64,000 bases of DNA from Blastocatellia bacterium (GCA_963804815.1 CAWDRU010000002.1:7126939-7190938), one strand, 5' to 3'. Counted from the stretch's first letter, positions 1-20,693 are shown. Numbers and translations: made by a program. The notes: generated by a model not told the origin, from the letters alone.

Positions 1-786
1 GTGCGGAAGTCCGCTCAGCATTTGTTTAAAGGCGGTAGCCTTTGTATCAATATCTTCCCCCGCGCGCAGATGCTCGGCATAAGATTTGAGACGGTCGAGA
101 GCTGACGGCTGTGGCGACCACCTCCACATATTCACCCAGTGGTCGGGCGCTTCAAAGATGTCGCTGTTCCGGTGTGCGTTCTTTACCCAGCCCCTGACCT
201 CATCAGGCCTTTCGGCGAGTTCACGGATAAGCCGTCCTGGCAGTACCAGACGGAACTGGCGCTGGTTGTGCTCATAACTGGCCGAGAACTCCAGGCCGTC
301 GTCCGTGACCGCTTCAAGGGCGAGCCGCAGACGTGACCAGCGCAGAAGGATCGGATGCTCGTAAACGAGTAAGACCTTGAATAATTCTAAGAAGCGATCA
401 TCAAGCTCGATATCCTGGGCAATCAGCTTTTCGCGCAGCTCATCCATGCCGAATATGACTCGCAGGGTTCGGCCTTTTGCAGGGGTTACCGCATCGGGAA
501 TCAGGCTGATTGCGGCGTCCAGTTCCCTAGAGGCTTTTTTCCACATGTGACGTTCCCCTCGCGGTAGCACTTTGAAAAATGTGTTGCGGGTCAAATCCGT
601 GTAGTAAAACGGCTTTTCGACCGTCATGTGTCGGCCACAGACCGGGCAGGCGGCCTTGTGCAGTTCGCCGCGCAATATACGGTCGCGCGATTCCGGCGAA
701 CGCTTGACGTTAATACTATCGGCCAGTTGGACAACTAGACTGTTGCCGCATACACACCTTACTGTTTGTGGGTGAAAAACAGCCAA
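1..786 (-). CDS. CpXC-domain zinc-ribbon protein. Partial: continues beyond the window start. Begins with TTG at 786 and is not in the supplied ORF track because it has no stop inside the window.
   Basis: Hand translation of the minus strand from 786 downward gives about 260 aa with no stop: LAVFHPQTVRCVCGNSLVVQLADSINVKRSPESRDRILRGELHKAACPVCGRHMTVEKPFYYTDLTRNTFFKVLP... Two CxxC/CPxCG motifs with the spacing and Gel...CPxCG...Y.D pattern typical of the CpXC family. GGAGG sits 8 nt upstream of the TTG. Confidence 0.5.
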   Translation of the reverse strand, partial: MAVFHPQTVRCVCGNSLVVQLADSINVKRSPESRDRILRGELHKAACPVCGRHMTVEKPFYYTDLTRNTFFKVLPRGERHMWKKASRELDAAISLIPDAVTPAKGRTLRVIFGMDELREKLIAQDIELDDRFLELFKVLLVYEHPILLRWSRLRLALEAVTDDGLEFSASYEHNQRQFRLVLPGRLIRELAERPDEVRGWVKNAHRNSDIFEAPDHWVNMWRWSPQPSALDRLKSYAEHLRAGEDIDTKATAFKQMLSGLPH

Positions 787-852
787 TGCTATTACCTCCT
801 TTAGTATGGCCGGGGTTCGCCCCGGCCTGTAGGACGCTTGAAAGCCGCGAGA

Positions 853-1665
853 TTAAAGTTTCGACAATCTTGAGAGTCTTGCACCATGGCACCCGACCTG
901 ATCGTTAAAGGGATGAACAATCTCCCCCGGCTGCACCGGGCGGGGCTTCTTTGTGAGGCGGACCTGTTTATTCTGAGGAGTATCAGGTGTTAGCGCCTTG
1001 TAAAATGTGTTGAAGTCGCTAATGGTGCTGTGAGGCGGGGGTGGGCCGCAGTGACAATCGAAGTCGATTACGTACCTGATGCCTTTTTTAACATCGGAAG
1101 CATCAGCCCTCATTTTAATTACGCCGTCAATTGTCAAGACAGCTACGCTTTCCGGAGTATCGAGGTATATATTGGCAGCGATTTCATCTGCCAGTTTTCC
1201 AAAGTTTTTCTTATTTGCCTCTCCCAACCTGAGCTCCGCAGTATCCTCGAAGCGCTTCCTGGTATAGAAGAGAGCGTTGTTGACGCGAAAAATGGGCTTG
1301 ATCCTACCTTTCTTTGTCTTATACTGCCGGTCCGGGTGCAGGTCGGTTTCTACATCTACAAACCAGCGGAAATCATTGGGGTCGCCTGTGCTCCCGGCTC
1401 TGTAAAACTTCGCCAAGCCCTTATAGGTTTCGATTTTTTTCCTGGATGTCTTCTTGACCTCCAGTGAAATTCTGGAACTCCCATCAGGGACCTGTATCTT
1501 TTCATCAGCCGCGCCCGGAGTTTTCTTTGTGACTGTGAGCTTGGCTTTGTGACACGGAGAGTCGATCAGGGCTCCTACTTCAGCGAACGGATTGCCCTCA
1601 GTGATTGCTGCCAGCACGAGGCCCTTGAACACTATTTGGATAGTCGGATCACTTGCTATAGCCAT
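853..1665 (-). CDS. Hypothetical protein of about 270 aa with no recognisable domain. The ORF extends to 1707; the start is placed at the second ATG.
   Basis: ORF 853..1707. GAGGAGAAAGAT precedes the ATG at 1665 (MAIASDPTIQ...), while the first ATG at 1707 has no SD. Sits 16-58 bp downstream of the CHAT gene stop on the same strand. Confidence 0.45.
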   Translation of the reverse strand: MAIASDPTIQIVFKGLVLAAITEGNPFAEVGALIDSPCHKAKLTVTKKTPGAADEKIQVPDGSSRISLEVKKTSRKKIETYKGLAKFYRAGSTGDPNDFRWFVDVETDLHPDRQYKTKKGRIKPIFRVNNALFYTRKRFEDTAELRLGEANKKNFGKLADEIAANIYLDTPESVAVLTIDGVIKMRADASDVKKGIRYVIDFDCHCGPPPPHSTISDFNTFYKALTPDTPQNKQVRLTKKPRPVQPGEIVHPFNDQVGCHGARLSRLSKL

Positions 1666-1722
1666 ATCTTTCTCCTCAAAGCTTGAAGTAACTAATTCCG
1701 ATTTCATGCAGACATCGGCGAT

Positions 1723-4700
1723 TCAAAAATCAGCATGTCCGCCGATGGTTACAAATGACGCCCAGTTGTAGGGCAGGCGACTACGGTGGTCGTCTTCCCT
1801 GAGCATCTCCCTTTGCGCTTCACTCAGGGCTTCGACTGTAGTCATCTTTCCGATCATGCGGTTACGGTGAAAGCGTATCATCAGCTTAGCGGTGGAATCC
1901 GTATCGACCGGCCATAGACTTGCCACGACAAGCGGAATCCGCTTCGCTATGAAAGGCCGTGCGAGCCCGATCATGCCTTCCCCGCCGTAATAGCGTTCAA
2001 CTCCAGTCCGGCAAGCCGAGAGCACCACCAGCCGCGCCCGTTCAAGATTCAAACTGTATATTTCATTGGCTTGAAGAACCCCGCTTGACTCGCCTGTCAA
2101 ATCTTTCGCCAGCACGAGCTTCGAGCGCATCGAATTCCACTCGTCTGCTATCGCATGCATGGCGAGGTGAATAACATCCGCTTTCTCTATTTCACTTTTA
2201 ACTCGTCTCTTTGTGGCTGACTTCCCGATGAGCGGGGCGGGCGAGCCGTAATAGCCGGTTATGGCCTCTGCCTCTCTGGCAGCCGAATGCAAATCGGCAA
2301 GTCCCGGAAACTTGTCGGTATCAAAGAGCGGGTTGCCGACGCTCAATAGCTTTTCGTTTTTCAATTTGCCTTTTTGATCGGCAGCTTCTGAACAAAGAAT
2401 GAAAACGTTTGAGCTGGGAGAAAGCGCAAACGTATGCTCCTCGATAAAGTATGGACCCGAAGCCCCGGAAACTTTCAGAGCGCCGAACGGAAGATAATTC
2501 AGAATCTTGTCGGGGACGATATAGAGTTGCTTCTCTTTATCGAGAGCGCCCTCGACGGGCTTGATAAGCAAGTCATACAGCGCCGCGGCCTTGTGCGAAG
2601 CCGCCTCCTCGCTATTCCCATCCTGCGCGGAGATCAACTGAAGATAGTCGCGAACCATCTGATTCAACTCTTCAACTGGTAGGCGCAGCAGTTTGCTGAA
2701 AAAGCCGTCTTTTGATACTACCCAGATCACCAGACTGTCTTTCAATACGGCGTATTGCAGTATCTGCGTCTGCGTCGGCATCTGCTGTCGAATATCTTCG
2801 ATGCCCAGCGGCTGCGTGACCTCGCTAAAGCGTATGTCAGGGCTTTCGCGGTCCTCGATGAGCTTAACGTTTGTGCTTATCATATCGCGCAGCGACCGGG
2901 CACGGCTTCTTTCTGAAAAATCAAAAGCCTTTTGCTCATTGCCCTTCTTCGCATACTCAAACTCGATTGCGATGTCATAGATGCTCTGTTCGCCATCGAA
3001 GAAGGTGTTGCGGTTGCTCTCTTCCAATATCTTAGACCTGTGCTGCTCAAAAAGATTAAGGAGCCGGTCCAACTCCTCCTCGAACGAAGGGCAGATGCCC
3101 TGCTCCATGCAGCAAAGCAGTTTGTCTTTCCAAGCCATGTAATTAAAGAAAATCGAGCCTACATCATGGTAAAGTTGAATCGCCCGGTCGTAGTTTTCCA
3201 GAGCCTTATCGAAATCTCCCGCTTTCCTGTAAACATAGCCCAGATGCAGGTAGCAGTATGCGATGGTGTCTGTCTGGACGCTCTTGTCAGGGAAAGAATT
3301 TCCTATCTCAAGGGCGCGCTTTATACTGTTAGCCGCTTCGACATAATCGCCCCTTCTGGCCAGCATCTCCCCCAGATGATTGTAGGAGCGACTTGCGAAC
3401 CACGGCCTTTCCCCATCCAATGCTATTTGCAAAGCTTCCTTTTGAAATGCGATTGCAGCCGCAGGCAGACCGAACTGGTCCAGGGTTAACGATATGGAAA
3501 AATAGTGCCGCCATCTCTGCACCCGCTGTGGCAAACAGGTTAGGGCGAGCGACAATGCCTGCGCATGCAGATCGAGGGCTTTCTGGTAATTGTTTATAAA
3601 ACGATATTCGTCTGCCAGTTGAAAAGTGCTCCCTTCAAAACCCGATGTATCGCCCATATCTTCTGAAAGCTTCAAAGAGCGCGTGGTATGACTTATAGCC
3701 GTCGAAAAGTCTCTAAGGCTCTGATTTCCATGAGCCGTGGCGGTGAGAATCTGCGCCAGTAATTTTTTATACTGAGACTCCTCGCAGCTTCGAGCGATGC
3801 TTTGAAAGATGGCAAGCCCCGGGCCGGGGTTCAACTGGCGTAAATAAGTTTGTCCTATCGCGTACTTCGTGTAGATTGCTTCATAAATATCGCCAGCGCG
3901 TTCAAAGCTCTTTTCAGCGTCATCGTATAATCTTCTGGCTTCCTCAAAATTGTTTTTAGAAGCGATTTCCCGACCTTTTTTCACCAGGCTGCGCGCCTGC
4001 AACATGTTCTTTCGTTGAGCCGGGGTTATGGTCCTGTAAAAACGAACCAGATCGAGCAGGAACCGGTCGCGCGCCTGCCTGTACTCCAGATCAGCTGCGT
4101 AGGCCAGCGCATCGAGTCTTTCGTCGGCTTCGATAAGGCGTCGTTCGGTGACCAGAGCGAGATGCTCGTCCATCAGCCGATTCTCGATGAAATTCCCGGT
4201 CATATCAGGGTTCTGGTTAAGTAGCTTCCATGCCTGCACATCATCTTTAGACTTGTAGGCATTGAGGAAATTTTGAAAAAGCTGCTCTCTGTTTTGCGAA
4301 GGCTGCTCCTCATGTTCTCCAGGCAAACTGAGATTCTGGCGCGCTTCTTCTGCCCATTTTGAATCAGAGTCTTTTTTCAGATAATTCTTCCATGCCTCAG
4401 CGGCCTGTTGTTGCAGGTTCATGTGCTGCAAACATAAAGCGCAATTGAAAAGGGCTTCAGGAAGCGCAGGTTCCAATCCCAATGCCCGGTTGAGTTGCTC
4501 AAGGCTTTTCGCGAAATATTCCAGCCCTCTCCCCGACTCGCCTTTCATTCGATCAGCTTTCCCAAGTTCGAGCAGAGCCGCCCCGTAGTCGCTATGAAAC
4601 TGCGCGTTATTCGACTCTGTTTCGAGCGCTTCTTCAAATTGGGTAATCGCTTGATCGAACTGCCTCTCGGTTAAATAATATATGCCGAGAGCGTGTCGTG

Positions 4701-5007
4701 ATTTTGCGCTCCGGTTAGCCTTGTCATCATACAGAAGTAGCAATGCCGCGCGGTCACGAGTTACTCGCTCAAGTGAGTTTGCCTCACCATCCCGCGTATT
4801 GAGAAAGGCGGCATAGGATAATAATGTAAGCCGCGCTTCAAATGGCCGTTGCTGCCTGTAGGCGTCACGCAGCGCGCGGACTCCGCGCTCGACATCTGTT
4901 TGCGGAATGAACGTGTATATAAAACCGAAGCCCGCCGCAAACAGAATCAGTAAGCAGATAGCTATCTGTCGGACGTTCGCAGTACGAATCTTACTCCGGA
5001 GGCCCAT
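1723..5007 (-). CDS. Membrane-anchored TPR-repeat protein with a C-terminal CHAT (caspase-like) protease domain.
   Basis: 1094-aa ORF. N-terminal TM helix (IAICLLILFAAGFGFIYTFI), then about 700 aa of TPR-like repeats. The C-terminus carries the CHAT His/Cys dyad context: ...VIHLAMHA... and ...RLVVLSACRTG... Confidence 0.8.
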   Translation of the reverse strand: MGLRSKIRTANVRQIAICLLILFAAGFGFIYTFIPQTDVERGVRALRDAYRQQRPFEARLTLLSYAAFLNTRDGEANSLERVTRDRAALLLLYDDKANRSAKSRHALGIYYLTERQFDQAITQFEEALETESNNAQFHSDYGAALLELGKADRMKGESGRGLEYFAKSLEQLNRALGLEPALPEALFNCALCLQHMNLQQQAAEAWKNYLKKDSDSKWAEEARQNLSLPGEHEEQPSQNREQLFQNFLNAYKSKDDVQAWKLLNQNPDMTGNFIENRLMDEHLALVTERRLIEADERLDALAYAADLEYRQARDRFLLDLVRFYRTITPAQRKNMLQARSLVKKGREIASKNNFEEARRLYDDAEKSFERAGDIYEAIYTKYAIGQTYLRQLNPGPGLAIFQSIARSCEESQYKKLLAQILTATAHGNQSLRDFSTAISHTTRSLKLSEDMGDTSGFEGSTFQLADEYRFINNYQKALDLHAQALSLALTCLPQRVQRWRHYFSISLTLDQFGLPAAAIAFQKEALQIALDGERPWFASRSYNHLGEMLARRGDYVEAANSIKRALEIGNSFPDKSVQTDTIAYCYLHLGYVYRKAGDFDKALENYDRAIQLYHDVGSIFFNYMAWKDKLLCCMEQGICPSFEEELDRLLNLFEQHRSKILEESNRNTFFDGEQSIYDIAIEFEYAKKGNEQKAFDFSERSRARSLRDMISTNVKLIEDRESPDIRFSEVTQPLGIEDIRQQMPTQTQILQYAVLKDSLVIWVVSKDGFFSKLLRLPVEELNQMVRDYLQLISAQDGNSEEAASHKAAALYDLLIKPVEGALDKEKQLYIVPDKILNYLPFGALKVSGASGPYFIEEHTFALSPSSNVFILCSEAADQKGKLKNEKLLSVGNPLFDTDKFPGLADLHSAAREAEAITGYYGSPAPLIGKSATKRRVKSEIEKADVIHLAMHAIADEWNSMRSKLVLAKDLTGESSGVLQANEIYSLNLERARLVVLSACRTGVERYYGGEGMIGLARPFIAKRIPLVVASLWPVDTDSTAKLMIRFHRNRMIGKMTTVEALSEAQREMLREDDHRSRLPYNWASFVTIGGHADF

Positions 5008-5278
5008 GCAAGCTCCTAAAGCCCAAAAATCTGCAAGTTCACCGTTGTTTCCCTAGCTTCTAAGGTAGTTGTCTATGTTTCTCGCGCGTTTCAATCGCCC
5101 CTTATGGAGCTTTTGTTCATTCCCGAACTTTTGTTCCATACAGGACTTGCTTCACTATAAATGGTGAAACCTGGTTTTTCATTTCATGTGCCGGTTAATT
5201 GCCTGCGACAGTATAACCGGGTGAAATGTTTTTCGATTATGGTCATTTAGGAATAGATACCAGAAAAGGAGAATAGTT

Positions 5279-5365
5279 ATGGCCTGCACCTTAACGAGGA
5301 ATGAAGTATCGGACATCGTAATAGAAGGACGATGTGTTGAGATTGGCCCCTCGCATAAGGGTTGA
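5279..5365 (+). other. Small 28-aa ORF (MACTLTRNEVSDIVIEGRCVEIGPSHKG) with a strong SD. It lies in the divergent intergenic region between the CHAT operon and the 796-aa membrane-protein gene. Could be a leader peptide or a micro-protein.
   Basis: AAAGGAGAA sits 7 nt upstream of the ATG at 5279. There is an in-frame TGA at 5363. No homolog was recognised. Confidence 0.2.
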
Positions 5366-5585
5366 TCTGTTACTCAACGTAAACATCAATCAGGCATTTT
5401 AACCTCTAACTTTGGAGTTGGGCTTCAATATAAAAAGGGAAGTTCTGCTCATATGGCAACACCTTCGCGGGAACGCTTACCATTCGCTTCGGAGAGGGCA
5501 GAAAACTATGAGTTGTCAGATGTGGGGGCTGCCGCCGCTCGATAACTTAACCGGGCGCGACGGTCTGAGGCGCGGAGAGTCCGGC

Positions 5586-7976
5586 ATGGTTAAGAGTATA
5601 TTTCGCTTTGTAAATAAAATTACGGCTGTTGTGTTTATCGCCGCCTGCGTTTTCGTTCAACCCGAAGCGGCTCAGGTGCAGCCTTCACGGTCAGTCGTCT
5701 TTCTGGACGAGAGAGATTTAACCGTCGATTTCGACCGCATCCTGCAACAGGAAAGGCGGCTCACAGTAGGCATTCGCAATAACGATTCCAAAGGCGCGCA
5801 GAAGGTGGAACTACGCCTAGTCGGCATAGTGCCTCAGGTCGGTGATCCTGATAGCAAACTGATCAAGGTGGTGCCCGACTCGGTCGTTAAAGAGTTAGCC
5901 TCCGGGCAGGCAGCAGATTTTGATCTGACCTTTAAAGAGGGCGCGCGACCCACGTCGGGAACTTATGAAGGCGTTCTCGTCGCAATGGGAGAGAGTGGGG
6001 AACTCGCAAGGCGAAAGCTCATCCTACAGATTAAAGAAGTAACTTCTACCTCTTCAACCCAAACGCCTGCCGTCAAGCCGGAGGACCCGTCTCGCATCGC
6101 TCTTCTGCCTGAACGATTAAAGTCCCTGACTTTATCCGGGACGAATTTCTTACCCTCCCTGATCAGCCAACTCACTCCGGCGTTTTTCTTTGTAGGGGTG
6201 ACGCTGATTCTACTCTGGGCTGTTTTGAAAGGAATAAGGAAAACCGACCGTAACGGGCAAATCCGCGCACTCCGCGAAGTTGGCTCACTGTTGGCTATGG
6301 TCTGGTTCGTATTGATCTTTCTTGAATGGGGCAAGATCATAGAGCCTCCGGGCTTTCATAAGGTGGAGATACAGTCCATCCCTCTGCTCTCGCAAACCGG
6401 CGACGCTACTCTAGGCATTGTGGCCGCCTCTGATGGCGACCTCGGAAAACTCGCGAGGGAAAATGATCAGTTAGTGGTGAAGGGCATCGAACATGCAGGA
6501 AAGTATGAAGGCTCGATGCCTTTTGGGACTAATAAGGACTTCGCGGTTATAGTGAACGTCGCCGATTGGTGGCCTTATGCAATTCTAACGATTGGACTCG
6601 GTGTCTTATTGGGTTACGGGGTTGTTAATTACTACAAGCTCAGGCGTGGCATAGACGAGCAAAACGTACGGGCCACTAAGCTGTGGAAGAAGATCATTGA
6701 TGACGAGAGCTATTATCAACACGATCACAACAGCCGACCATACGCCGTGGCTCGTATGGTAGAGCTGGCACAGGAATGGATAGCGCTCGTACAAGCAGAC
6801 CTGAGCGCCAGTAAGACCGACGATGCTAAAAACAGATTAGATCGCCTTGAAACGTACGCCAATTTGTTCGCGCGTCTGCGAGTAGACGTAGACGATCTTT
6901 TTAATCTTGAGCAGGAAGTTAAGGGCAGAATTCAAGAACAGGATTTTGACCTGAAGATTGGCTCTGTAAACTCGCTCAATAAGGTAAAAGATTTATTCAT
7001 TTTATTGAACAGCAATCCATTCAGATTTTCGCCCAATGGGGCCGAGACCGAACAGGCCGATAAGCTTAAAGCGATCCAAACGCAGGTACCACCCCTTGTA
7101 AGCTGGCTTCGAGAGTTGAGAGATACTCACATCCTGATCGCCAAAACTTTAAAATGGGCAAGGGAGTTAGAAGATGCCAGCACCTCGAACTGGACACAGC
7201 CGCAGAAGGACAAGCTTGCAGAGCAGATTGATAAAATAGAGAAGGCGGGCTTTAAAGCGCTGACAAGAGAACAGACTGATCTGGTGACTTGCAGGACCGA
7301 AACCCAGGATGCATACCTCGTGATTAGAAACTTACAGGAAGAAGTTGAAAAAGGATTCGGCGACATATTGATACCGAAAGAGAAGGCCCATCTTATCTTT
7401 GCAGCGCCCGCATTATCAGCGCCGGAACCGGAAGCGCTGCCGAAATCCTGGCTCTGTAATGTAATGAGCTTTGACGGGGAAAAGACCGATTGTTCCGGCG
7501 ATTCAGATGACCTCTTTACCTTCACAGCTTTGGTCCAATTCAAAAAGCCGCTCGTCAGCGAAAAGAGCTATCGATGGGACTTCGATGATAGTTCGGCTCC
7601 GGTAACGCATACGATACCTGCGGGGACAGTCGGAAACGTGGATTTGAAAATAAGCCACCGTTTCGGGGCCGGAGGAAAGTACAATGTCACGCTTTTAGAT
7701 GAGAGCGGTAATTCGCGGGGCCGTTGGCAGGCGATGGTCAGTTTAGGCATGGGCCGTTGGGAGAGAGCCCTTTCCGCTTTCAAATTCGCCGAACAGAAGA
7801 TGACTCTGATTACAGGATTGCTGACGGTCGGTTCAGGCTTTTTGACGCTATACTACGCCAGCCCGACCTGGGGGGCACCAGCCGATTATCTTAAAGCATT
7901 CTTGTGGGGATCTGTGATCTCCGAAGGCTTAAAATACGTAAGCAACCTCGTGGGTCGCCTATGGCCTGCAAGCTAA
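5586..7976 (+). CDS. Large polytopic membrane protein with a signal peptide, a central coiled-coil region and a PKD-like beta-sandwich segment. Function unknown.
   Basis: ORF 5412..7976; start chosen at MVKSIFRFVNKITAVVFIAACVFVQPEAAQ (GGAGAG upstream). Hydrophobic helices at AFFFVGVTLILLWAVL, LLAMVWFVLIFL, WWPYAILTIGLGVLLGYGVV and two near the C-terminus. A PKD-like stretch reads SFDGEKTDCSGDSDDLFTFTALV...YRWDFDDSSAPVTHTIPAGTVGNVDLKISHRFGAGGKYNVTLLDESGN. Confidence 0.6.
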   Translation: MVKSIFRFVNKITAVVFIAACVFVQPEAAQVQPSRSVVFLDERDLTVDFDRILQQERRLTVGIRNNDSKGAQKVELRLVGIVPQVGDPDSKLIKVVPDSVVKELASGQAADFDLTFKEGARPTSGTYEGVLVAMGESGELARRKLILQIKEVTSTSSTQTPAVKPEDPSRIALLPERLKSLTLSGTNFLPSLISQLTPAFFFVGVTLILLWAVLKGIRKTDRNGQIRALREVGSLLAMVWFVLIFLEWGKIIEPPGFHKVEIQSIPLLSQTGDATLGIVAASDGDLGKLARENDQLVVKGIEHAGKYEGSMPFGTNKDFAVIVNVADWWPYAILTIGLGVLLGYGVVNYYKLRRGIDEQNVRATKLWKKIIDDESYYQHDHNSRPYAVARMVELAQEWIALVQADLSASKTDDAKNRLDRLETYANLFARLRVDVDDLFNLEQEVKGRIQEQDFDLKIGSVNSLNKVKDLFILLNSNPFRFSPNGAETEQADKLKAIQTQVPPLVSWLRELRDTHILIAKTLKWARELEDASTSNWTQPQKDKLAEQIDKIEKAGFKALTREQTDLVTCRTETQDAYLVIRNLQEEVEKGFGDILIPKEKAHLIFAAPALSAPEPEALPKSWLCNVMSFDGEKTDCSGDSDDLFTFTALVQFKKPLVSEKSYRWDFDDSSAPVTHTIPAGTVGNVDLKISHRFGAGGKYNVTLLDESGNSRGRWQAMVSLGMGRWERALSAFKFAEQKMTLITGLLTVGSGFLTLYYASPTWGAPADYLKAFLWGSVISEGLKYVSNLVGRLWPAS

Positions 7977-8067: not shown

Positions 8068-8577
8068 CTAAGCGCGACGAATAGTAAGAGAGATAACCTG
8101 GCGCACCCATCGTGCCTGGCGCTTTTCATCAGGAACAACGATCCGCAACGGCCCTTCTGTTGCCGACAGAGGATTCCCGTCCTTGCGGTCCACAAGCAAT
8201 ATCACTTTGTCGGTATAAGCGGGGTCGAGTTCAGGTAGCGCGAAAACTGCCCGGTAACCGTCTGAAGCTTCTACTATCAGGTATAGCGAGAGATTTTTAC
8301 CACGCAGACCATCTCCGAGCGGTACACCAGCGAGGCGCAGAATCTCTGCAATCGCTACGCCTTCATAAGCGTTTTCTTTTCCGCCATGATCTTTTGCCCG
8401 GACCGTTCGACGCGGGAGCTTTGCCAGATCTGCGGCGCTCAGTTTCAGCGGTCGCTCTACTTCTCCGCCGACGCTTAGCGCAACCCTTGAGTTAATACCA
8501 GTCGCCTGTTTCTCCTGCGAACAGATTGCAGGAGAATAGGAAAACAGAATCAGACACAGTGCGAGAATATGAGCCAT
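8068..8577 (-). CDS. Small secreted protein resembling a molybdopterin-dependent oxidoreductase (Oxidored_molyb-like) domain.
   Basis: 169 aa with a signal peptide (MAHILALCLILFSYSPAICS). The C-terminal ...GPLRIVVPDEKRQARWVRQVISLTI is typical of the sulfite-oxidase-fold Mo-binding family. Confidence 0.4.
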   Translation of the reverse strand: MAHILALCLILFSYSPAICSQEKQATGINSRVALSVGGEVERPLKLSAADLAKLPRRTVRAKDHGGKENAYEGVAIAEILRLAGVPLGDGLRGKNLSLYLIVEASDGYRAVFALPELDPAYTDKVILLVDRKDGNPLSATEGPLRIVVPDEKRQARWVRQVISLTIRRA

Positions 8578-8971: not shown

Positions 8972-11900
8972 ATGAAAGTCCCGCTACTTAAGTCTCTTTT
9001 TGTCCTTTTGCTTCTCGTCAGTTCAGTTCACATTTCAATCCACACCGCAGCAGCGCAAGCTGGGCAAGCCGAGCTTACAGGCGAAGTGCGAGATCAATCG
9101 GGTGCTGTAGTCCCCGACACTAAGATCACTGTGACTGAAACCAACTCTAATCAATCTTATCTCACAATGGTGAGGTCGAGCGGCGTCTACACTTTCACGG
9201 GGCTCAAGCCGGGGTTGTATACGGTAGCCGCTGAAGTTGCGGGGTTCAAACGCTACGTCCGCGAAGGCGTCCAACTTGCGACGGGCGAGAAGGTAAGACT
9301 CGACGTTCAGCTGGAAGCAGGGGCGGTTAGCGAAAGTATCACGATCAAATCCGACGCGCCGCTGCTCAGGAGTGAAACGGGCAGCCTCGGCCAGGTCATC
9401 AGCAATCGCAAGATCGTTGACCTGCCGCTCAATGGCCGCACGTTCGTCCAGCTTGTGGCTCTGGCTTCGGGAGTCGCGCTGCCGCCTGCCTCGTTCTTCC
9501 CGCGCATCAACGGCGGTCGCCCTAGGACTAATGAATACCTGTTTGACGGCATCTCGGTCTTGCAGCCAGAGCCGGGGCAGGTCGCTTTCTTCCCGATCAT
9601 TGATGCGATTCAAGAGTTCAAGGTTGAAACCAACAGCCCGCCCGCCGAGTTCGGGCGCTTCAACGGCGGCGTCATCAATCTGACGACAAAATCGGGGGCG
9701 AACGAATTTCACGGCTCCGCATTTGAATTCTTCAGAAATGAAGTTCTGAATGCTCGCAACCTGTTTGCGCCCGCGACGGCAAACGACCCTAACAAACCTG
9801 TGTTCCGTCGCAACCAGTATGGGTTTGTATTGGGCGGCCCGATCATCAAAGACAAGACGTTCTTCTTCGGCGACTATCAAGGCACCCGGCAACTGATCGG
9901 GCGGGTTCGCATCTCGACCGTGCCAACGCTTTTGCAGCGACAGGGCATCTTCACAGAACTGGTTGGTGGGGTCGCGCCCAGGATATTCGACCCCGCGACG
10001 ACAAGGCCCCGGCAGGGCGGCGGATTCACGCGCGATCAGTTCGCAGGCAATCAAATCCCCACGTCCAGAATTGACCCTGTAGCTTTGGCCTTACTCAACC
10101 GTTACCCGCTGCCCACTTCAAGCGCGACAGCCAACAACTTTCGCAGGGTCGCTAATGAGAGCGACGAGCAAGACCAATTCGACATTCGTATAGATCACAG
10201 GTTTTCGGACAAAGATCAGGTTTTCGCGCGTTACTCATTTGCAAAAGATTTGCTCGACCCCGTCACCCCGCTGCCGGAAGGGAGCGGCAACATCACATCG
10301 GGGGCTACGGGTTTAACAGACACTCGCGGCCATTCTTTCGCTTCAAACTACATTCACCTCTTCAGTCCGAGGCTGAGCAACGAGCTTCGCTTCGGTTACA
10401 CACGCCGCGTGATTGACCGCAAAGCATTACTTCTGGACTCGCCGCCTTCCGAGAGTCTGAGGCTGCCGGGCATCCCGTCGAACGCCGCTTTTCAGAACGA
10501 ACTTCCTACCTTCTTAATTGATGGGTTTCAGCAACTCGGCCCTGCCGCGAACACCGATTCCGACTTTCGCACGGATGTGACGGAGATCGTTGACACGGTG
10601 GCTTTTCAGCGCGGCAGACATTCGATTAAGGCCGGTCTGGATTTTCGATGGGAGCGGCTCGACATTATTCAGCCGCCGTCGCCGACAGGGTCTTTCCGCT
10701 TCAGCACTCTGTTTACTGATTTGCCGGGCACGACCGGAGCGGGCAATCCGTTTGCGAGTTTTCTGCTGGGGCAGGTGCAGACCTTTTCAATCGACCTGCA
10801 GCAGAACGCTATTCGTCCCCGCGCTCACATACAGGAATACTTCATTCAGGACGATTGGAAGGTCACGCCGCGGCTTACGATCAATGCGGGGCTGAGATAT
10901 ACGCTCAACTTCCCCTCAACAGAAGTTGATAATCAAGGAGCGATTTTCAACCTGCAAACTCAGCAGTTTGATTTCTTTGGCGAAGACGGATTCCCACGAT
11001 CTGGCCGCGAGCTACATAAGGCCAACTTCGGGCCGCGTCTGGGCGTTGCGTATCGGTTGACGGACAAAACAGTAGTGCGCTCAGGTTATGGCTTGATCTG
11101 GATAGAGATGGCGGGCATTACAACTCCATTCATCAACCCACAATTCCCATTCATCCAGACCGTTTCGCAAAGGACGCTGGACAATGTTAATCCTGCTTTT
11201 GTGCTGAAGGGCGGGCCGAGCGTCGCGCCGATCCCGCTCACGCCTGATGCGGGGCTGGGGCAGGGAGTTTTTTCGGTTGATCGCGGACTCGGCTCCGGCT
11301 ACGCGCAGCAGTGGAATCTGGCAATTCAGCAGGAGATCACAAACAACCTGTATTTCGAGATAGCTTACGCAGGGTCGAAGATCACCCACGTCGGCATACC
11401 TGACACGAACATCAACCAACTCACAGCCGAACAACTCCAGATGGGCGCGGCACTGCTTCAACGCGTGCCCAACCCGTTCTTCGGGCAGATACCGCGCTCA
11501 TCCAGTTTAGGTGACCCGACCATACCGTTAGCGCAACTCCTGAAGCCGTTCCCACGATTCACCACGGTCAGCCTGTTTCGTAACAATGTCGGCAATACAA
11601 ACTACAATGCGTTGCAGATGAAAGTAGAGAAGCGACTTTCACAAGGATTTTCTTTCCTCGCAAGCTACACCCGATCAAAGCTTATAGACGAAGCGTCGTC
11701 TGTCTTTGACGCAAGTATACTGACAGGGCCTGTGGCGAATTTTCCCGTAGCCGACAGTTTCAACCGCAAACTCGAACGCGACGTATCGAGCGGCGACATC
11801 CCGAACGTGTTCGTCGCGAGTTTCACTTATGAGCTTCCGTTCGGGGCAGGCCGCAAGTTTGACCCGCGAGGAGTTGCAGGAAAGTTCCTGCGCGGATGGG

Positions 11901-12334
11901 AAGTTGCAGGAGTCGTAACAGTTCAATCAGGATTACCGCTTGCCGTCACACAGGCGACGAACTTCAATGCATTCGCGGGATTCGGCACACAACGACCGAA
12001 CCGTATAGCCAAGCCCGATCTGCCTGGCGCTCAACAAAGCACCGTAAAGTTTTTCAACACGGATGCCTTCCAGATCGCGCCGCAGTTCACCATCGGTAGT
12101 AGTTCCCGAAATCCTGTGCGCGGGCCGAACTACCGCAACACGGATGTGGCGCTAATCAAGCGGACATACATCAACGAGCGAATGAATGTTGAGTTCAGAG
12201 CCGAGGCATTCAACCTGACAAACACGCCGCCGCTGTCTGCTCCGAATGTTGTGCTCGGTACTCCTGGCTTTGGTTCAATAACAGCAGCAGGCGATCCGCG
12301 AGTAATTCAGTTCGCGCTGAAATTCAACTTTTGA
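8972..12334 (+). CDS. TonB-dependent outer-membrane receptor with an N-terminal carboxypeptidase-regulatory-like domain.
   Basis: 1120 aa with a signal peptide. The N-terminal GEVRDQSGAVVPDTKITVTETNSNQSYLTMVRSSGVYTFTGLKPGLYTVAAEVAGFKR is a CarboxypepD_reg-like domain. Plug and barrel follow, with a C-terminal aromatic ending ...FALKFNF. Confidence 0.85.
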   Translation: MKVPLLKSLFVLLLLVSSVHISIHTAAAQAGQAELTGEVRDQSGAVVPDTKITVTETNSNQSYLTMVRSSGVYTFTGLKPGLYTVAAEVAGFKRYVREGVQLATGEKVRLDVQLEAGAVSESITIKSDAPLLRSETGSLGQVISNRKIVDLPLNGRTFVQLVALASGVALPPASFFPRINGGRPRTNEYLFDGISVLQPEPGQVAFFPIIDAIQEFKVETNSPPAEFGRFNGGVINLTTKSGANEFHGSAFEFFRNEVLNARNLFAPATANDPNKPVFRRNQYGFVLGGPIIKDKTFFFGDYQGTRQLIGRVRISTVPTLLQRQGIFTELVGGVAPRIFDPATTRPRQGGGFTRDQFAGNQIPTSRIDPVALALLNRYPLPTSSATANNFRRVANESDEQDQFDIRIDHRFSDKDQVFARYSFAKDLLDPVTPLPEGSGNITSGATGLTDTRGHSFASNYIHLFSPRLSNELRFGYTRRVIDRKALLLDSPPSESLRLPGIPSNAAFQNELPTFLIDGFQQLGPAANTDSDFRTDVTEIVDTVAFQRGRHSIKAGLDFRWERLDIIQPPSPTGSFRFSTLFTDLPGTTGAGNPFASFLLGQVQTFSIDLQQNAIRPRAHIQEYFIQDDWKVTPRLTINAGLRYTLNFPSTEVDNQGAIFNLQTQQFDFFGEDGFPRSGRELHKANFGPRLGVAYRLTDKTVVRSGYGLIWIEMAGITTPFINPQFPFIQTVSQRTLDNVNPAFVLKGGPSVAPIPLTPDAGLGQGVFSVDRGLGSGYAQQWNLAIQQEITNNLYFEIAYAGSKITHVGIPDTNINQLTAEQLQMGAALLQRVPNPFFGQIPRSSSLGDPTIPLAQLLKPFPRFTTVSLFRNNVGNTNYNALQMKVEKRLSQGFSFLASYTRSKLIDEASSVFDASILTGPVANFPVADSFNRKLERDVSSGDIPNVFVASFTYELPFGAGRKFDPRGVAGKFLRGWEVAGVVTVQSGLPLAVTQATNFNAFAGFGTQRPNRIAKPDLPGAQQSTVKFFNTDAFQIAPQFTIGSSSRNPVRGPNYRNTDVALIKRTYINERMNVEFRAEAFNLTNTPPLSAPNVVLGTPGFGSITAAGDPRVIQFALKFNF

Positions 12335-12775
12335 AAAGAGAAGTCGTTATAGTCTCTTTCGGCGAGCATGGAAAGTGAGGCAGAAAATGAAGCTCTGGGA
12401 ACAAACCAAAGCAGTCTTTAACTCAAGCTGAAAACTCTATGCGGTCGTAGCGATGGCCTTCATCCTGCTGATCGCCTGCAATTATTAAGCGCGTAGAACT
12501 CTTCTAATCCATATTTTTCAATAAGCTTTTCTGCGTAAGTACCCAGCTGAATCTATCTCATATCTTATTTTTAAGTAAGACCAAACAACAAAGTAGCTTA
12601 AGTTTCTTTTTTTGTTTTGTCTTTTGTGTAGCAGTACCTTTAGCCACGCGCGCAAAGATGCTTCTCGCCTTCGTGGAAAGTCAATCACTGATGCCGGTTG
12701 ACTTTAATCAATCGTGATGTATACTACTGCCCCTATATGACTTATCAAGTCTTGTCTTGATTCATTGGAGTAACA

Positions 12776-13456
12776 ATGGAGAATCCAGACATTACAAGTA
12801 AAGGAGATAACTCTCCTAAAATAATCAAGCCAAAAAAAAGCCGCGTTGTCGGTAAAAAACTATGTGAGTTTTTTGTGAATATAGCAGCGCACATTAACAG
12901 ACAAAGATCCCGCAAGTTCTTAGCTGGCTTTTCATTATTTTTATTGTTCGCAATTTCTACTTATGCCGTGATTAGTGTAATAGCTGCATCTGGGCCACGG
13001 TTTCTTTATCGTGATAAGCCATTCAACGAGTTAACTAAAGCAGGCATCGACATAAGGCTGGATCAATCAAGGAGCTTATTTCAAGTTGGTATACTCATTT
13101 TAGGTGGATTATGGGGATTGCTTATTGCAAAAAGAGGTGAGGCAGCCCTGATGTTCAAAGACTATCCTGAAGTAATTATGATTGTGTGTGCAACTATATT
13201 TCTCATTGCATCATTTTTCTTTCATACAGTTTATATAACCAGGATTTCTGATATCTATTCTGACGCCGGAGAAGTAATAGGCAAACAAATACAAGTAAAC
13301 CCCAATGACAAACAACCAATGTCTATTCCAGATGTGTTTGCGCCAAATATAAACTATATGTTTGTCTCCCAAAGTTTATTCCTGATTTCTGGGGTTGGGA
13401 TTGCGTTACTAGCCTTCGTTAGTGCTTACAAGTTCAAACCGGAGAAAACACAATGA
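12776..13456 (+). CDS. Hypothetical integral membrane protein (low-GC island).
   Basis: 226 aa with four hydrophobic helices, in an AT-rich context. Its stop overlaps the next start, indicating an operon. Confidence 0.45.
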   Translation: MENPDITSKGDNSPKIIKPKKSRVVGKKLCEFFVNIAAHINRQRSRKFLAGFSLFLLFAISTYAVISVIAASGPRFLYRDKPFNELTKAGIDIRLDQSRSLFQVGILILGGLWGLLIAKRGEAALMFKDYPEVIMIVCATIFLIASFFFHTVYITRISDIYSDAGEVIGKQIQVNPNDKQPMSIPDVFAPNINYMFVSQSLFLISGVGIALLAFVSAYKFKPEKTQ

Positions 13457-14148
13457 AAAGGCATGTTGTTTTACTATTCTTAATCATTTTAAGCTTAATA
13501 GTTTTTTCAAATCAGATACCTATAAAGCATATAGAGGCTCAGGAAAAAAAGAAGAGTGATGATAAGAAGAAAGACCCTCCTGGACCGCCTGTCGTGCGCA
13601 ATAAGGATCGAGATCAAAGGGTATATAGAGGGATAAATTCAACTCAAGCCACCTCTGAAATACTAACAAGTGATGAAAAATCGTTCTTAGAGCTTTCCTC
13701 TAAAAAAATAAGTGACTTACAGCCGCATGTTCCTGCCACCATGATTCGGAATGATAAAGACACAATCGCTGAATCTTTGAGGGAGATTGAAAGTAAGTAT
13801 GAGAAAAAAGGCTTCGATAATTCCAATATTCGATCTGCGATATTTTTTAGTTGGGCTACACTGCGGGGCGACATTTTAAACCCGGAGGAAAAGCTTGAGA
13901 GAAAAGTTTTTGTATCTTTTGCAAAGAAATTAGGATTGCTTAAAATTTTAACCGATCCGGCTGGAGCAAGAGTGAAGATTGATAATATAGATCGCCCTGA
14001 AACCACCAATATTTCTTTTTGGCTTGTTGGCGGCCAATACCGAATACAAATTACTAAAGATGGATATGTACCTATAAATGAAGAATGTGATGTCAAAGAA
14101 CTTGATGTAACGGAAGTTAAGAGGGTCCTCGAAAAGAAGAATGAATAA
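13453..14148 (+). CDS. Secreted hypothetical protein with a C-terminal PEGA-like domain.
   Basis: Signal peptide MKRHVVLLFLIILSLIVFS. The C-terminal KILTDPAGARVKIDNIDRPETTNISFWLVGGQYRIQITKDGYVPINEECDV resembles PEGA beta-sandwich domains. Confidence 0.45.
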   Translation: MKRHVVLLFLIILSLIVFSNQIPIKHIEAQEKKKSDDKKKDPPGPPVVRNKDRDQRVYRGINSTQATSEILTSDEKSFLELSSKKISDLQPHVPATMIRNDKDTIAESLREIESKYEKKGFDNSNIRSAIFFSWATLRGDILNPEEKLERKVFVSFAKKLGLLKILTDPAGARVKIDNIDRPETTNISFWLVGGQYRIQITKDGYVPINEECDVKELDVTEVKRVLEKKNE

Positions 14149-14524
14149 GACTCTATACACTGCTATTTCTCCTCGCCTCTCCCCTCATTACCTACATTCA
14201 GGATTTAATCGCGGAGAGTAGCTTTTCAATCTTCTGTGGACTGCCAAACTCGCTCTGCTGCGGTGTCGCTTTTAATATCTCCACTGGTTTTTCTTTCGGT
14301 ACTCGCGGAAGCAGGCGTTATACTCCTCGCGGTTCTTGAATGATGAAAGGTTGGGCATACCTTTACAGTACAAGAGTCGATAACTTTGGCAATAATTTTA
14401 CTTGTCCACACTCCTGAAATCATTGCGCGTTATCCCGTAATCTGTAGTACAATGCTGCGGCCACACTTATCCTATGCCGCCAAGAGATCAGGCGGTGAAG
14501 TTTAGTTAAATTGATTACACAACT

Positions 14525-14758
14525 TTAGGCTCTAAATTTCAGCCCTAGCAGTAACGCAGCAAGAATCAACAATGTCCCAGAGCCTAAGTCAGAAGGGGTG
14601 CTTTGTTGATTTGCTTGACCACTACACTCTCCTGGGTAGTCCTCAATACATCCTGCTGTCCCACATTCACAGGCATACCCACTACCAAAAACATGACCTC
14701 CCAGAGCGGGAAAGGACAGACACAAAATGAGCATAACGGTTGCCAGTAATCGTTTCAT
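14525..14758 (-). CDS. Small exported Cys-rich protein of 77 aa with a C-terminal hydrophobic anchor.
   Basis: AAGGAGG sits 5 nt upstream of ATG(MKRLLATVMLILCLSFPALG...). Mature part GSGYACECGTAGCIEDYPGECSGQANQQSTPSDLGSGTLLILAALLLGLKFRA has five Cys plus a C-terminal TM segment and a basic tail. Confidence 0.45.
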   Translation of the reverse strand: MKRLLATVMLILCLSFPALGGHVFGSGYACECGTAGCIEDYPGECSGQANQQSTPSDLGSGTLLILAALLLGLKFRA

Positions 14759-14819
14759 CACTTCCTCCTTAAAGGGGTTGTACGGGTATCTCACATATCA
14801 TCTTTCAAGTTTTCAAGCA

Positions 14820-15974
14820 TTGGGTGAAAGACTTATTCATGAGGCTGAGACTATACAAGCTTTCCGGCAGACTGAAAAGTTAGAAGAATTAGGCTTGATA
14901 CTATCCAACTTCCCAATAAAAGAATACCGGTTAGCAGGCCAATTCTATATCGGATGGTCTATTAATCGGAAGGGTCACGATGCACAGGAATTATTTGAAA
15001 AGGTTGTCGAGGAATCAAACACCTATCGAGCAAGGGCATTAATAGATTTAGGAAGCAGGCAAGCAAGAAAGGGATACTTTAGTTCCAGCATTCCTTACTA
15101 TACTGAGGCTCTTAAGTATTCTCAGAATACCTATACAATCGTACAAGCAGAAAGAAGCATCGCTGCCGCCAAAGGAGTTGAAGGGTACCATATAAAAGCT
15201 CTTAAAGATTTGAAACGGATTGCGCCTTTAGTGCGATATAGTCCACCTATTGAGCGACTCCAGTATTTAAACTCTCTTGCAATAGAATTAGCAAAGGTTG
15301 GAAGAGTGGAAGAAGCCCGAAATGTCTGTCAGATTACACTTGCCTCACCTTTTGCGTTTGCATACCCTGAGTGGCGCGAAACCGGGCAGGAGATAGAACA
15401 AAAATCCCGCCGTGCATCTCGTTCAGTTGTGGCAGTCAGTAAGAAGATTATTCAGCGAAAAATTAAAGAAACATCAAACCAACAATCTCTTGCAACCTAC
15501 GAGCAGAAAATCGAACTGGACAGTAATTTGCTTCCGTTCAGACGACGGCAACCTATCCACCCTCAAATCCCGCTCTACAGTCACCTTGAGACTACGGGTA
15601 ATCAATACACGACAGGTCAAAAACGATCACTCATCGTTGACATCGTTTCCCACCTTAATGAAGTCTCTTTAGATCGCCTCTTTGCTTTGGCCATGGAGCT
15701 TGACGAACCGCAATCTCGCAGGCCAAGACAGATTGATCTTGAAGAGAAAGGCACTCTCGAAACGTTGATGAGCCTCTGGACCAGCGGCGATCTGGACCCT
15801 AACGACCACGTTGCGGTGTTGTCTGCTCTCAGGGATTGCGACAATAATCTCCGCTTCAAAAACATCATCAACGAGATGATTACTTACATATTTCGCTTCA
15901 CACAGGAACGTATGCAAGGCGAATCTTTCTGGCGCAAACGAGTCGAGGCGCAGCTCACTCCTGAAACCGATTAG
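14820..15974 (+). CDS. Hypothetical protein with a helical, TPR-like composition. The start is uncertain (a TTG at 14820 is proposed).
   Basis: The ORF-track ORF 14727..15974 has no internal ATG for more than 350 codons and overlaps the strongly supported minus-strand gene ending at 14758. The in-frame TTG at 14820 removes the overlap. Confidence 0.35.
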   Translation: MGERLIHEAETIQAFRQTEKLEELGLILSNFPIKEYRLAGQFYIGWSINRKGHDAQELFEKVVEESNTYRARALIDLGSRQARKGYFSSSIPYYTEALKYSQNTYTIVQAERSIAAAKGVEGYHIKALKDLKRIAPLVRYSPPIERLQYLNSLAIELAKVGRVEEARNVCQITLASPFAFAYPEWRETGQEIEQKSRRASRSVVAVSKKIIQRKIKETSNQQSLATYEQKIELDSNLLPFRRRQPIHPQIPLYSHLETTGNQYTTGQKRSLIVDIVSHLNEVSLDRLFALAMELDEPQSRRPRQIDLEEKGTLETLMSLWTSGDLDPNDHVAVLSALRDCDNNLRFKNIINEMITYIFRFTQERMQGESFWRKRVEAQLTPETD

Positions 15975-16408
15975 CCTTTGCTTTGCGATTTCATAGTTTC
16001 TATGTAGTTCAACACTTCTTGCAATTGCTTGAGTGACATTTGCAACAACGTCTTTAGTATCTTCGTCAACTCAGGACTCGATACAATTTTCCCAATTGCT
16101 TTTGCAAGAATGGTTCCCGGCCAGGGATCGCGTCTACAGGCTGATTTATAATCGAGTGGAAGCCCTCGTGCGACATTGAAAACATCATCTTCCGGCTCGT
16201 CAATACCGACGGCCAGAGCCTTGAGCTTACTAACGGAAGGGTTCCACGCCTTACCGTTGACGATACTACCGATATAAGCGTCAGTTATTCCTTTAAGACT
16301 ACGTTCCTCAACATTCAGATGAGTGAGTTGTTTTTCTTCGAGAATGCGTTTGACGTACTGGCTAAGTGTTTCGATTTTCTTATTTCTGTCGATCCTGTCA
16401 GTGACCAT
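15971..16408 (-). CDS. XRE-family helix-turn-helix transcriptional regulator.
   Basis: Start chosen at MVTDRIDRNKK (AGGA upstream). The HTH_3-like stretch reads LSQYVKRILEEKQLTHLNVEERSLKGITDAYIGSIVNGKAWNPSVSKLKALAVGI. Confidence 0.5.
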   Translation of the reverse strand: MVTDRIDRNKKIETLSQYVKRILEEKQLTHLNVEERSLKGITDAYIGSIVNGKAWNPSVSKLKALAVGIDEPEDDVFNVARGLPLDYKSACRRDPWPGTILAKAIGKIVSSPELTKILKTLLQMSLKQLQEVLNYIETMKSQSKG

Positions 16409-16536
16409 AGATGTCCTATAGCTAATTAGGAAAGGATATAGTGTGGTCAGTCCCCTTAGGGAAGTCTTGTACCATAGGCTGGGCGGACTCTCAATAGAAG
16501 ATTCAGGCAGACTACGGACTGACGAAAGAATACTCT

Positions 16537-16625
16537 TCCTTTTCCCTGTCAAGGTCGTCCCATAAACGGTACCCTAGACGCCCGTTTCGACTGACCGTTT
16601 CCTTCTCTTCCTGTGACAGGGAAAA
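16537..16625. repeat. Perfect 17-bp inverted repeat, CTTCCTTTTCCCTGTCA ... TGACAGGGAAAAGGAAG, with a nested AAACGG...CCGTTT repeat.
   Basis: Read directly from the sequence. The left arm overlaps the 5' end of the XRE-regulator ORF. Confidence 0.6.
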
Positions 16626-17202
16626 GGAAGCAACCGTAATAGAGATAATCACCAGGTACGCTGTGCCTGCTGAAAGACCAGGCTCTTTGATCTGGGAGAT
16701 AGGATTATACGATCTTGATGCTGTGGCTGAGGAGATCGTTAAAACACTATGCGTAAATTCTTCTCGATGATCTTTGAAATAGCATTTGCCTTATGCTGTG
16801 TGCCTGTGGCTATCTGGCAAAACGAGAGAGCCAGGAGAAAGCAGTAGACTTGCCCCTTTGCCGTTTGGCAGGGGGTGGTAGGGGGTGCGCTCTGAGTCGC
16901 TGCGCAATAGAGAAGGGAAGAGGACATATGCAGTATATTACCCTGCCTTTCCAAAACACTAACCAGCTTGATAATCATAGAGTTCTGAGCGATGAATGGT
17001 TGAAGCCGTTTCAACGGTAGTTTCAACGCTGGTTTCTCAGTTCTTCGTCTATCTTTTTAAGGATAAACTCTCGGTCTTTGCCAAACCACTTGAGACTTTC
17101 GCGGATCACAACGTCCCTTTTCTGCTCATCCCCTGACCTGCTTCCCTAAATTCGAGCCATCGATTGTGAGACAATCGCTCCCATGCGACGGAGGAACAAT
17201 CG

Positions 17203-18308: not shown

Positions 18309-18480
18309 TTGGCCCGAAGAACGGGGACAGGTCACCCCAATGGCCGCTGAAGGTGGGTTCATACGGGTCAAAAATGGCCCCAGGGGACGTTTTGCGCCCT
18401 TCTGTTTGGAATAATGCGATGTGCGCTGTTTCAACTGCCCTATGAGACGAACAGCAAAACAGCTAAACAGATATAAGTGG

Positions 18481-20691: not shown

Positions 20692-20693
20692 AG

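Follow-up and report, generated by a model that had tools for sequence, protein, structure and literature searches.

A TPR-CHAT locus of a Blastocatellia bacterium as a probable sigma-less derivative of a cassette recurrent in soil bacteria

DdvA of Myxococcus xanthus is the only characterised anti-sigma factor of the TPR-CHAT type (TPR, tetratricopeptide repeat). Cryo-electron microscopy places its TPR-CHAT part in the periplasm, and DdvA-like proteins have been reported only in Myxococcota and one Comamonas (PMC11506125). Constant effectors, namely metallo-beta-lactamase (MBL), alpha/beta-hydrolase, Pepco as well as EACC1 proteins, pair with proteases of the trypsin, caspase or subtilisin class (bioRxiv 10.1101/2025.11.14.688446), and bacterial gasdermins adjoin C14 or CHAT proteases (bioRxiv 10.1101/2021.06.07.447441). 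Genes for sigma factors of the extracytoplasmic function (ECF) group ECF54 are found near genes for carboxypeptidase, subtilase and CHAT proteins, and proteolysis has been proposed as the regulatory principle (PMC8999054, PMC7826278). In this work we analysed a stretch of 64,000 nucleotides from a Blastocatellia bacterium (GCA_963804815.1 CAWDRU010000002.1:7126939-7190938), which as a whole is called the window below, and in which a gene for a membrane-anchored TPR-CHAT protease is followed on the same strand by a gene for a 270-aa protein, here named U270, and by a gene for a protein with a CpXC zinc ribbon. With a probability of roughly 0.55, we consider this locus to be a derived, sigma-less copy of a cassette that recurs in soil bacteria, with a CpXC-zincin in the slot that is usually held by another peptidase.

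The canonical form of this cassette is an ECF-like sigma gene, a gene for an anti-sigma-TPR-CHAT protein with one transmembrane (TM) helix, one to three copies of U270 and a gene for a peptidase of varying class that has no signal peptide. CHAT and U270 genes are adjacent in all 16 related loci with enough DNA. When the look-ups were anchored on U270, upstream DNA was available for seven distinct homologues (26-54% identity), and all seven sat just 3' of a TPR-CHAT gene, which in the loci compared by tblastn was 64-71% identical to the window CHAT. A metagenome scan was anchored on the CHAT C-terminus, since the U270 alignments had no stretch conserved enough for such a scan, and it gave 13 loci in which U270 open reading frames (ORFs) were identified by a hidden Markov model (HMM) built from the U270 alignment. 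An ORF of the U270 family lies 21-216 bp after the CHAT stop in every one of the scan loci with at least 800 bp downstream (10/10, 9 of them distinct), and some loci contain two or three U270 copies in tandem. Of 12 informative foreign cassettes, 11 have a peptidase gene after U270: an S8 subtilase in eight (L046, L049, L051, L052, L054, L056, L068 and L069), a C14 caspase in two (L062/63 and L064) and an M36 fungalysin-type metallopeptidase in one (L074). None of these S8, C14 and M36 proteins has a signal peptide. The exception, L070 (4867-8629), belongs to a distant branch, in which the gene after U270 encodes a 437-aa protein with a Sec signal and no Pfam match, and both U270 paralogues carry Tat-like signal peptides (MKKLNRRDYLKR...); judging from these predicted signals, the downstream module as a whole seems to be exported into the same compartment as the TPR-CHAT domain. 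In L046 (7818-11399), the S8 gene is followed by a gene for a protein of 1193 aa that ends in a 5'-nucleotidase C-terminal domain, and no such gene was observed in the other cassettes.

At the 5' end of the cassette, a gene for a protein of 183-236 aa precedes CHAT in 8/8 loci with upstream DNA. Its product matches Sigma70_r2 at 7e-6 and the ECF sigma superfamily models TIGR02989 (1.9e-13) and TIGR02937 (5.8e-8), both under the curated cutoffs, and a profile of the family matches RpoE (2q1z) at 8e-4 across sigma regions 2-4; by these matches it is a predicted divergent ECF-type sigma factor. The cassette sigma factors (L046:707-1261, L056:3262-3810 and six homologues; alignment A6) have four invariant cysteines, CxxxC...CxxxC, located partly between the sigma-2-like and sigma-4-like regions and partly after them, and from this pattern a metal or redox site within the sigma factor may be suspected. 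The CHAT orthologues (37-71% identity) have an N-terminal extension, consisting of a conserved, anti-sigma-like domain of ~105 aa that has no Cys/His motif and is followed by a single TM helix at ~aa 107-160. Both of these elements are gone from the window. Its CHAT ORF begins 14 residues ahead of the TM helix, with an in-frame stop 17 codons upstream of the ATG, and lacks the anti-sigma-like domain; tblastn with sigma and N-terminal-domain queries (E<=10) detected nothing credible in 5008-5585, directly upstream of the CHAT gene; and no homologue of the cassette sigma or of the S8 peptidase was found by tblastn across the whole 64-kb window. The third, or peptidase, slot of the window cassette is occupied by the CpXC-HExxH gene.

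In the window CHAT protein, the Pfam CHAT domain (PF12770, clan CD) was matched at aa 807-1089 with an E-value of 4.9e-62 (210.4 bits versus a cutoff of 24), and the match spans profile positions 4-288 of 289 (nt 1741-2589). Multiple TPR families matched the region of ~aa 98-620, and one hydrophobic TM helix is found at aa 15-33 (nt 4909-4965). The motif VIHLAMHA begins at aa 945 and contains His947 and His951 (codon 2155-2157), the motif VVLSACRTG begins at aa 994 and contains Cys999 (codon 2011-2013), and all three residues are invariant across six CHAT orthologues. From the distribution of charges only, an N-in/C-out orientation is predicted, with the TPR-CHAT part on the extracytoplasmic side. 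Searches of PDB sequences with the CHAT protein, the CHAT domain and the CHAT profile retrieved only TPR proteins and a weak separase match (E 0.22), and DdvA was not retrieved by any of them. The initial annotation, made from the DNA alone, had already proposed the four ORFs, the CHAT and TPR assignments with an N-terminal TM helix and the two catalytic motifs, and in these respects it was correct; it had also described the 270-aa protein as having no recognisable domain, which agrees with profile searches of U270 against Pfam, NCBIfam and PADLOC, where no match was found.

U270 represents a family that had to be searched for exhaustively. A word-indexed homologue search yielded just 2 and then 9 proteins, and an HMMER search of 1.84 billion cluster representatives was required, which detected 261 relatives at E<=1e-3, nearly all of 250-340 aa. 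The window protein carries the motifs C38-H39, D98-F-R-W, D203-C-H-C and S216-D-F and a C-terminal Cys257. In the family as a whole (alignment A2), an N-terminal strand (hFxGL) occurs with a Cys-His pair, the DFRW motif is present in 116/148 full-length members, and the segment DCxC...SDF is present in many. The C-terminus consists of a variable linker and then a Pro...Cys motif, with a Cys within the last 40 residues in 147/148 full-length members. An AlphaFold2 model of U270 is nearly all-beta, with a predicted local distance difference test score (pLDDT) of 92.7 and a predicted template modelling score (pTM) of 0.90. Foldseek comparison of this model with PDB and BFVD gave nothing at E<=0.001, the best TM-scores being ~0.1; a U270 profile search against PDB sequences gave no match; and no Pfam family recurred among 45 members, even at E<=5. 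The family therefore stands at 261 or more cluster representatives, at least, with no annotation and no detectable fold relative.

The CpXC gene runs off the window, and the initial annotation, which had suggested that the stretch be extended leftward, had described its product as a double-CPxCG zinc ribbon. The complete protein of 589 aa was obtained from contig JBAWDW010000238 of the Blastocatellia metagenome-assembled genome (MAG) GCA_049590935.1 (L001:12683-14452, where the DNA past the CpXC stop covers 256 bp). The zinc-ribbon assignment held for the N-terminal 137 aa, which match Pfam CpXC (PF14353) at 7.9e-24 (84.4 bits versus a cutoff of 25.4); the first cysteine pair, however, is CxCG and not CPxCG, and the protein has a second half with an HExxH motif. 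A word-indexed search found 263 homologues. Among the 120 of these that were listed, most have 560-625 aa and 48-70% identity, and they come from Acidobacteriota, Alpha-, Beta- and Gammaproteobacteria, Bacteroidota, Cyanobacteria, Planctomycetota, Verrucomicrobiota and Myxococcota. In 44 aligned homologues, H376, E377 and H380 of the sequence RHEVGHAVHE (HExxH) are invariant, and conservation reaches 90% or more at the zinc-ribbon cysteines C11/C13 and C47/C50 and at E526 and E530 of EFFAELYAL. These residues of the HExxH and EFFAE motifs are candidate metal ligands. The succession of HExxH and an EFFAE-type glutamate motif in the C-terminal half presumably resembles that of anthrax lethal factor (ATLF). 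Below the Pfam thresholds, the members match ATLF (19/44, best 0.013), Peptidase_Mx (7), M76 (5) and a zincin-like family (3). Because of the conservation of the HExxH and EFFAE motifs, we read the protein as a probable fusion of a CpXC zinc ribbon with a gluzincin. It would differ in this from typical members of the CpXC family, which are small stand-alone zinc ribbons, and it shares with ATLF and MtfA-like gluzincins an HExxH motif with a downstream glutamate motif, at a sub-threshold profile match. A widely conserved 589-aa "CpXC domain-containing protein" is thus probably a metallopeptidase.

A working scheme for the cassette and for the window locus can be inferred from these sequences and from the analogy with DdvA/DdvS. 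The TPR-CHAT part would face outward, into the periplasm, and would sense or cleave something in the envelope, possibly as a site-1 protease. In the canonical cassettes, activation of CHAT would free the sigma factor and thereby raise transcription of the downstream genes. U270 would be the constant functional core, and the neighbouring peptidase would process or license it as its substrate or partner, in keeping with the logic of the known protease-effector pairs. Such a role is plausible because U270 is constant while the class of the peptidase changes, and because a variable linker precedes the conserved motif; the peptidase would most plausibly act at this linker, before the C-terminal Pro...Cys motif. 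In the window genome, the peptidase slot would be filled by the zincin-like CpXC/HExxH protein, and the CHAT protein may, after the loss of its sigma-binding domain, act as a membrane-anchored protease or sensor only, or be regulated in trans.

Several findings weigh against regarding the window locus as a derived copy of the cassette that functions in this manner. First, the TPR-CHAT part is predicted to be extracytoplasmic, whereas signal peptides are lacking in U270 and in the peptidases of this branch (~10% of the distant U270 members have Sec or Tat signals), and because the predicted compartments differ, a direct contact between CHAT and U270 is doubtful in the branch of the window. Second, the sigma gene and the anti-sigma domain are both missing, which precludes a DdvA-like signalling step in cis. 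Third, scans of the window gave promoter-like and terminator-like sites at no higher rate than shuffled sequence did, and a GC hairpin is interposed between the U270 and CpXC genes. Co-transcription is therefore putative, and so is the operon proposed by the initial annotation, of which the common strand and the tight spacing of the genes are the only signs. Fourth, the zincin assignment of the CpXC protein is below the Pfam threshold. Its AlphaFold2 model has a pLDDT above 90 for ~aa 390-550 and an overall pTM of 0.58, and Foldseek comparison of the whole-chain model with PDB gave no metallopeptidase match and nothing at E<=0.001; a PDB sequence search with the protein gave no match either. 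Fifth, when the window proteins were compared with the PADLOC-DB 2.0 models, only weak TPR and PDC-S39 matches in the TPR region were obtained, with none for U270, the CpXC protein or the neighbouring membrane protein. Finally, no CHAT gene is near the CpXC gene in 38 of 39 other genome loci with a full-length CpXC-zincin, including the closest relatives (65-67% identity), and no U270 homologue was found in any of the 39 loci. Clustering of the neighbours around 40 loci of the 589-aa protein revealed no conserved partner, the top clusters being shadow ORFs inside the CpXC gene. The adjacency of CHAT and CpXC in the window may therefore be accidental.

The same facts can be accommodated by a decayed cassette beside a chance neighbour, that is, by a CHAT-U270 remnant that lost its 5' end and its 3' peptidase by rearrangement, with an unrelated CpXC-HExxH gene next to it. 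We regard this as possible but rather unlikely. It would account for the absence of both ends of the canonical cassette, and it fits a CpXC family without conserved neighbours, a unique hairpin that parts U270 from the CpXC gene, and transposase and integrase ORFs with a low-GC block 7-17 kb off, beyond the membrane-protein gene. A remnant, however, is not what the retained genes look like: the CHAT and U270 ORFs are intact and full-length, the catalytic His and Cys of CHAT are kept, and U270 scores 5.5e-85 against the family HMM, on par with its relatives. The replacement gene, too, encodes a probable peptidase, which is the usual content of the slot; it lies on the same strand, and its TTG start is 66 bp past the U270 stop with its own ribosome-binding site (AGGAGG) upstream. 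The same arrangement is on record both in a 14.7-kb contig and in one longer than 1 Mb. Moreover, the sole other CpXC locus with a CHAT gene (L013, 4594-11770) is in a second Blastocatellia genome, the Pyrinomonadaceae MAG OY970256.1, where genes for a TM-TPR-CHAT protein, an ECF-like sigma factor, a 349-aa anti-sigma-like protein and a CpXC-zincin follow each other on one strand, so that the CpXC-zincin comes directly after the sigma/anti-sigma pair. This pair belongs to the same family as that of the canonical cassette; the 349-aa protein has the anti-sigma-like N-terminal domain and one TM helix, and the CHAT protein of L013 lacks the anti-sigma domain. Co-occurrence of CHAT and CpXC is thus not general, but it recurs twice within Blastocatellia. 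As for the conservation of the neighbourhood in other genomes, the absence of which would have refuted the initial annotation by its own account, the CHAT-U270 part is confirmed and the CHAT-CpXC part is not; the exact trio was found nowhere else, in line with the earlier remark that this gene combination is not a described system.

A further proposal goes beyond the derived-cassette reading, and we consider it improbable at present: U270 could be the first of a family of protease-licensed effectors with a novel structure, cleaved by S8, C14, M36 or CpXC-zincin peptidases and wired to a DdvA-like switch that senses the envelope. If true, it would be the eleventh protease-effector module and the first that is controlled from outside the cytoplasm. 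We give about as little credit to an anti-phage or abortive-infection module, in which U270 would be a latent toxic effector, for instance a membrane-active one, unleashed by the peptidase after the envelope sensor fires, and which would make the cassette a new counterpart, at the same low odds, of the gasdermin, Pepco or EACC1 modules. A constant small protein beside peptidases of interchangeable class does mirror the published protease-effector modules (10.1101/2025.11.14.688446; 10.1101/2021.06.07.447441), the C-terminal Pro...Cys motif of U270 comes after a variable linker, as would suit such an effector, and a defence island is under the control of DdvA/DdvS (PMC11506125). In addition, the C14 peptidase of L064 (4431-5324) matches the NCBIfam model "caspase, EACC1-associated type" at 7.9e-9, below its cutoff, a match that may link the third slot to caspases of described conflict systems. 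In contrast, the four proteins have no PADLOC match beyond TPR noise, no known defence genes were identified in the annotated flanks, no amphipathic or TM segment was detected in U270, and U270 has no similarity in sequence or fold to gasdermins or to any solved structure. The identification of U270 as a gasdermin was rejected, as neither PADLOC nor a PDB fold or profile comparison gave a match.

The layout of the locus is given in Table 1.

Table 1. Position of the cassette genes and adjoining features in the window
Feature	Coordinates	Strand	Basis or remark
CpXC + HExxH gene, 5' part (aa 1-262 of 589)	1..786	-	TTG start at 786, runs off the window; translation and Pfam CpXC
GC hairpin	808..827	-	In the 66-bp spacer between the U270 and CpXC genes
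U270 gene, 270 aa	853..1665	-	No family match; synteny with TPR-CHAT
TPR-CHAT protease gene, 1094 aa	1723..5007	-	Pfam CHAT, TPR, hydrophobic helix
Divergent intergenic region, 578 bp	5008..5585		No sigma or anti-sigma remnant by tblastn
796-aa membrane protein gene	5586..7976	+	Signal-like N-terminus, hydrophobic segments; outside the conserved cassette

The CHAT stop and the U270 start are 57 bp apart, or 15 bp apart with an alternative start at 1707 that would give a protein of 284 aa, and the U270 ATG is preceded at 7 nt by a GAGGAG ribosome-binding site. The hairpin in the following spacer has a perfect GC stem of 8 bp (GGCCGGGG-CGAA-CCCCGGCC) with no U-tract after it. It is unique in the window, where 0 matches are expected by chance, and despite this stem the fold of the spacer as a whole is unexceptional (z -1.6). 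The hairpin may serve in processing or stabilising the mRNA, or it may be a scar left by an insertion. The upstream regions of the window CHAT gene and of eight cassette sigma genes were not found to have an ECF-type promoter motif in common.

The divergent gene raises the question of whether four genes, rather than three, form the system, with the TPR-CHAT protein, U270 and the CpXC protein acting together with the 796-aa membrane protein. The two units have the divergent intergenic region in common (578 bp, where 580 bp had been estimated), and CHAT and the 796-aa protein are both membrane proteins. Nevertheless, a homologue of the 796-aa protein was sought in the related cassettes (loci L046-L068) and none was found, and it is an ECF-like sigma gene that sits upstream of CHAT there. 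The 796-aa protein was therefore excluded from the system, and we regard a four-gene system as very improbable. Of the earlier description of this protein, with a signal peptide, at least five TM helices, a coiled coil and a PKD-like fold, the signal-like N-terminus was found again, together with a long helical region; the hydrophobic segments amount to three clear and one or two weaker ones, and the PKD match is below the Pfam threshold (21 versus 27 bits).

Past the membrane-protein gene lie a gene for a small secreted protein with a molybdopterin-oxidoreductase domain (8068-8577, minus strand) and one for a 1120-aa outer-membrane protein resembling CarboxypepD_reg/TonB-dependent receptors (8972-12334, plus strand), both of which are typical of Acidobacteriota and unrelated to the cassette. 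A PEGA-domain ORF is located at 13453-14148. The GC content is 0.41-0.48 in a block at ~12-20 kb of the window (within 12000-22040), versus ~0.53 elsewhere; this block overlaps an IS3-type integrase ORF (17466-18308; rve, HTH_21), and an ORF for a DDE_Tnp_1 transposase lies just past it (20721-22040). The block and these ORFs suggest a mobile or recently acquired segment, ~4 kb past the membrane-protein gene.

The comparison with known systems places the locus differently from the initial annotation, which had named Csx29 as an example of a TPR-CHAT protease and had missed the probable metallopeptidase half of the CpXC protein, the peptidase in the third slot and the likeness to DdvA/DdvS. The type III-E Craspase system (Csx29, Csx30, Csx31 and RpoE; PMC10028731) shares with the cassette a TPR-CHAT protease linked to an ECF-type sigma factor, and the cassette sigma weakly matches the NCBIfam model "type III-E CRISPR-associated RpoE-like sigma factor" (3.3e-4). 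The window, however, contains no Cas7-11 gene and no homologues of Csx30 or Csx31, no CRISPR-type tandem array was found in its 64 kb, the neighbouring ORFs are unrelated to Cas proteins, and the CHAT protein is membrane-anchored and not cytoplasmic. A Csx29 or type III-E identity was therefore rejected, there being no CRISPR array or Cas genes. With the context described for ECF54, the cassette shares an ECF sigma gene that is syntenic with CHAT and subtilase genes, a likeness of gene context only: ECF54 is defined in Actinobacteria and described as having no anti-sigma factor, whereas the cassette CHAT itself has an anti-sigma-like N-terminus.

The protease-effector modules resemble the cassette in that a constant non-protease protein with a conserved C-terminal element is encoded beside peptidases of changing class (S8, C14, CHAT), and U270 is, like the bacterial gasdermins, encoded beside proteases, being flanked by CHAT and a second peptidase in the informative loci, L070 apart. 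Nevertheless, U270 is outside the families of these modules by sequence and by fold, the cassette peptidases have no fused STAND-type sensors, the presumed sensor being a separate membrane TPR-CHAT/anti-sigma protein, and the cassette slot also accepts metallopeptidases (M36 and CpXC-HExxH). If U270 were a protease-activated effector, the logic of proteolysis-gated bacterial immunity would be extended to the sensing of the envelope. What makes the cassette interesting is, above all, the fold-orphan U270 family with its strict link to CHAT, together with the swappable peptidase slot. The sigma/anti-sigma-TPR-CHAT/U270/variable-peptidase cassette, the U270 family and the CpXC-zincin fusion all appear to be undescribed in the literature searched.

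The closest characterised relative is DdvA/DdvS rather than Csx29. Like DdvA, the window CHAT is a single-pass membrane protein in which the His-Cys dyad is conserved and a large TPR-CHAT part forms the C-terminal portion, and the orthologous cassettes share, in addition, the N-terminal cytoplasmic domain and the adjacent upstream ECF-type sigma gene. There are also clear differences. DdvA carries a CHCC zinc-binding anti-sigma domain (ZASD), whereas a Cys/His zinc motif is lacking in the corresponding N-terminal domain of the orthologues; the downstream genes of the cassette encode U270 and a peptidase and not CBASS or CRISPR systems; and the lineage of the cassette is Acidobacteriota and soil metagenomes. 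By this analogy, the window locus would work like the DdvA/DdvS class without being a member of it, as the sigma gene and the anti-sigma domain, both found in its orthologues, are missing from the window copy. The cassette would thus represent a second clade of TPR-CHAT anti-sigma factors, found in Acidobacteriota and soil metagenomes, whose output is compact and fixed and consists of an all-beta protein and a class-swappable peptidase, and U270 with its peptidase would offer a tractable two-gene read-out of how TPR-CHAT sensors of the DdvA kind act.

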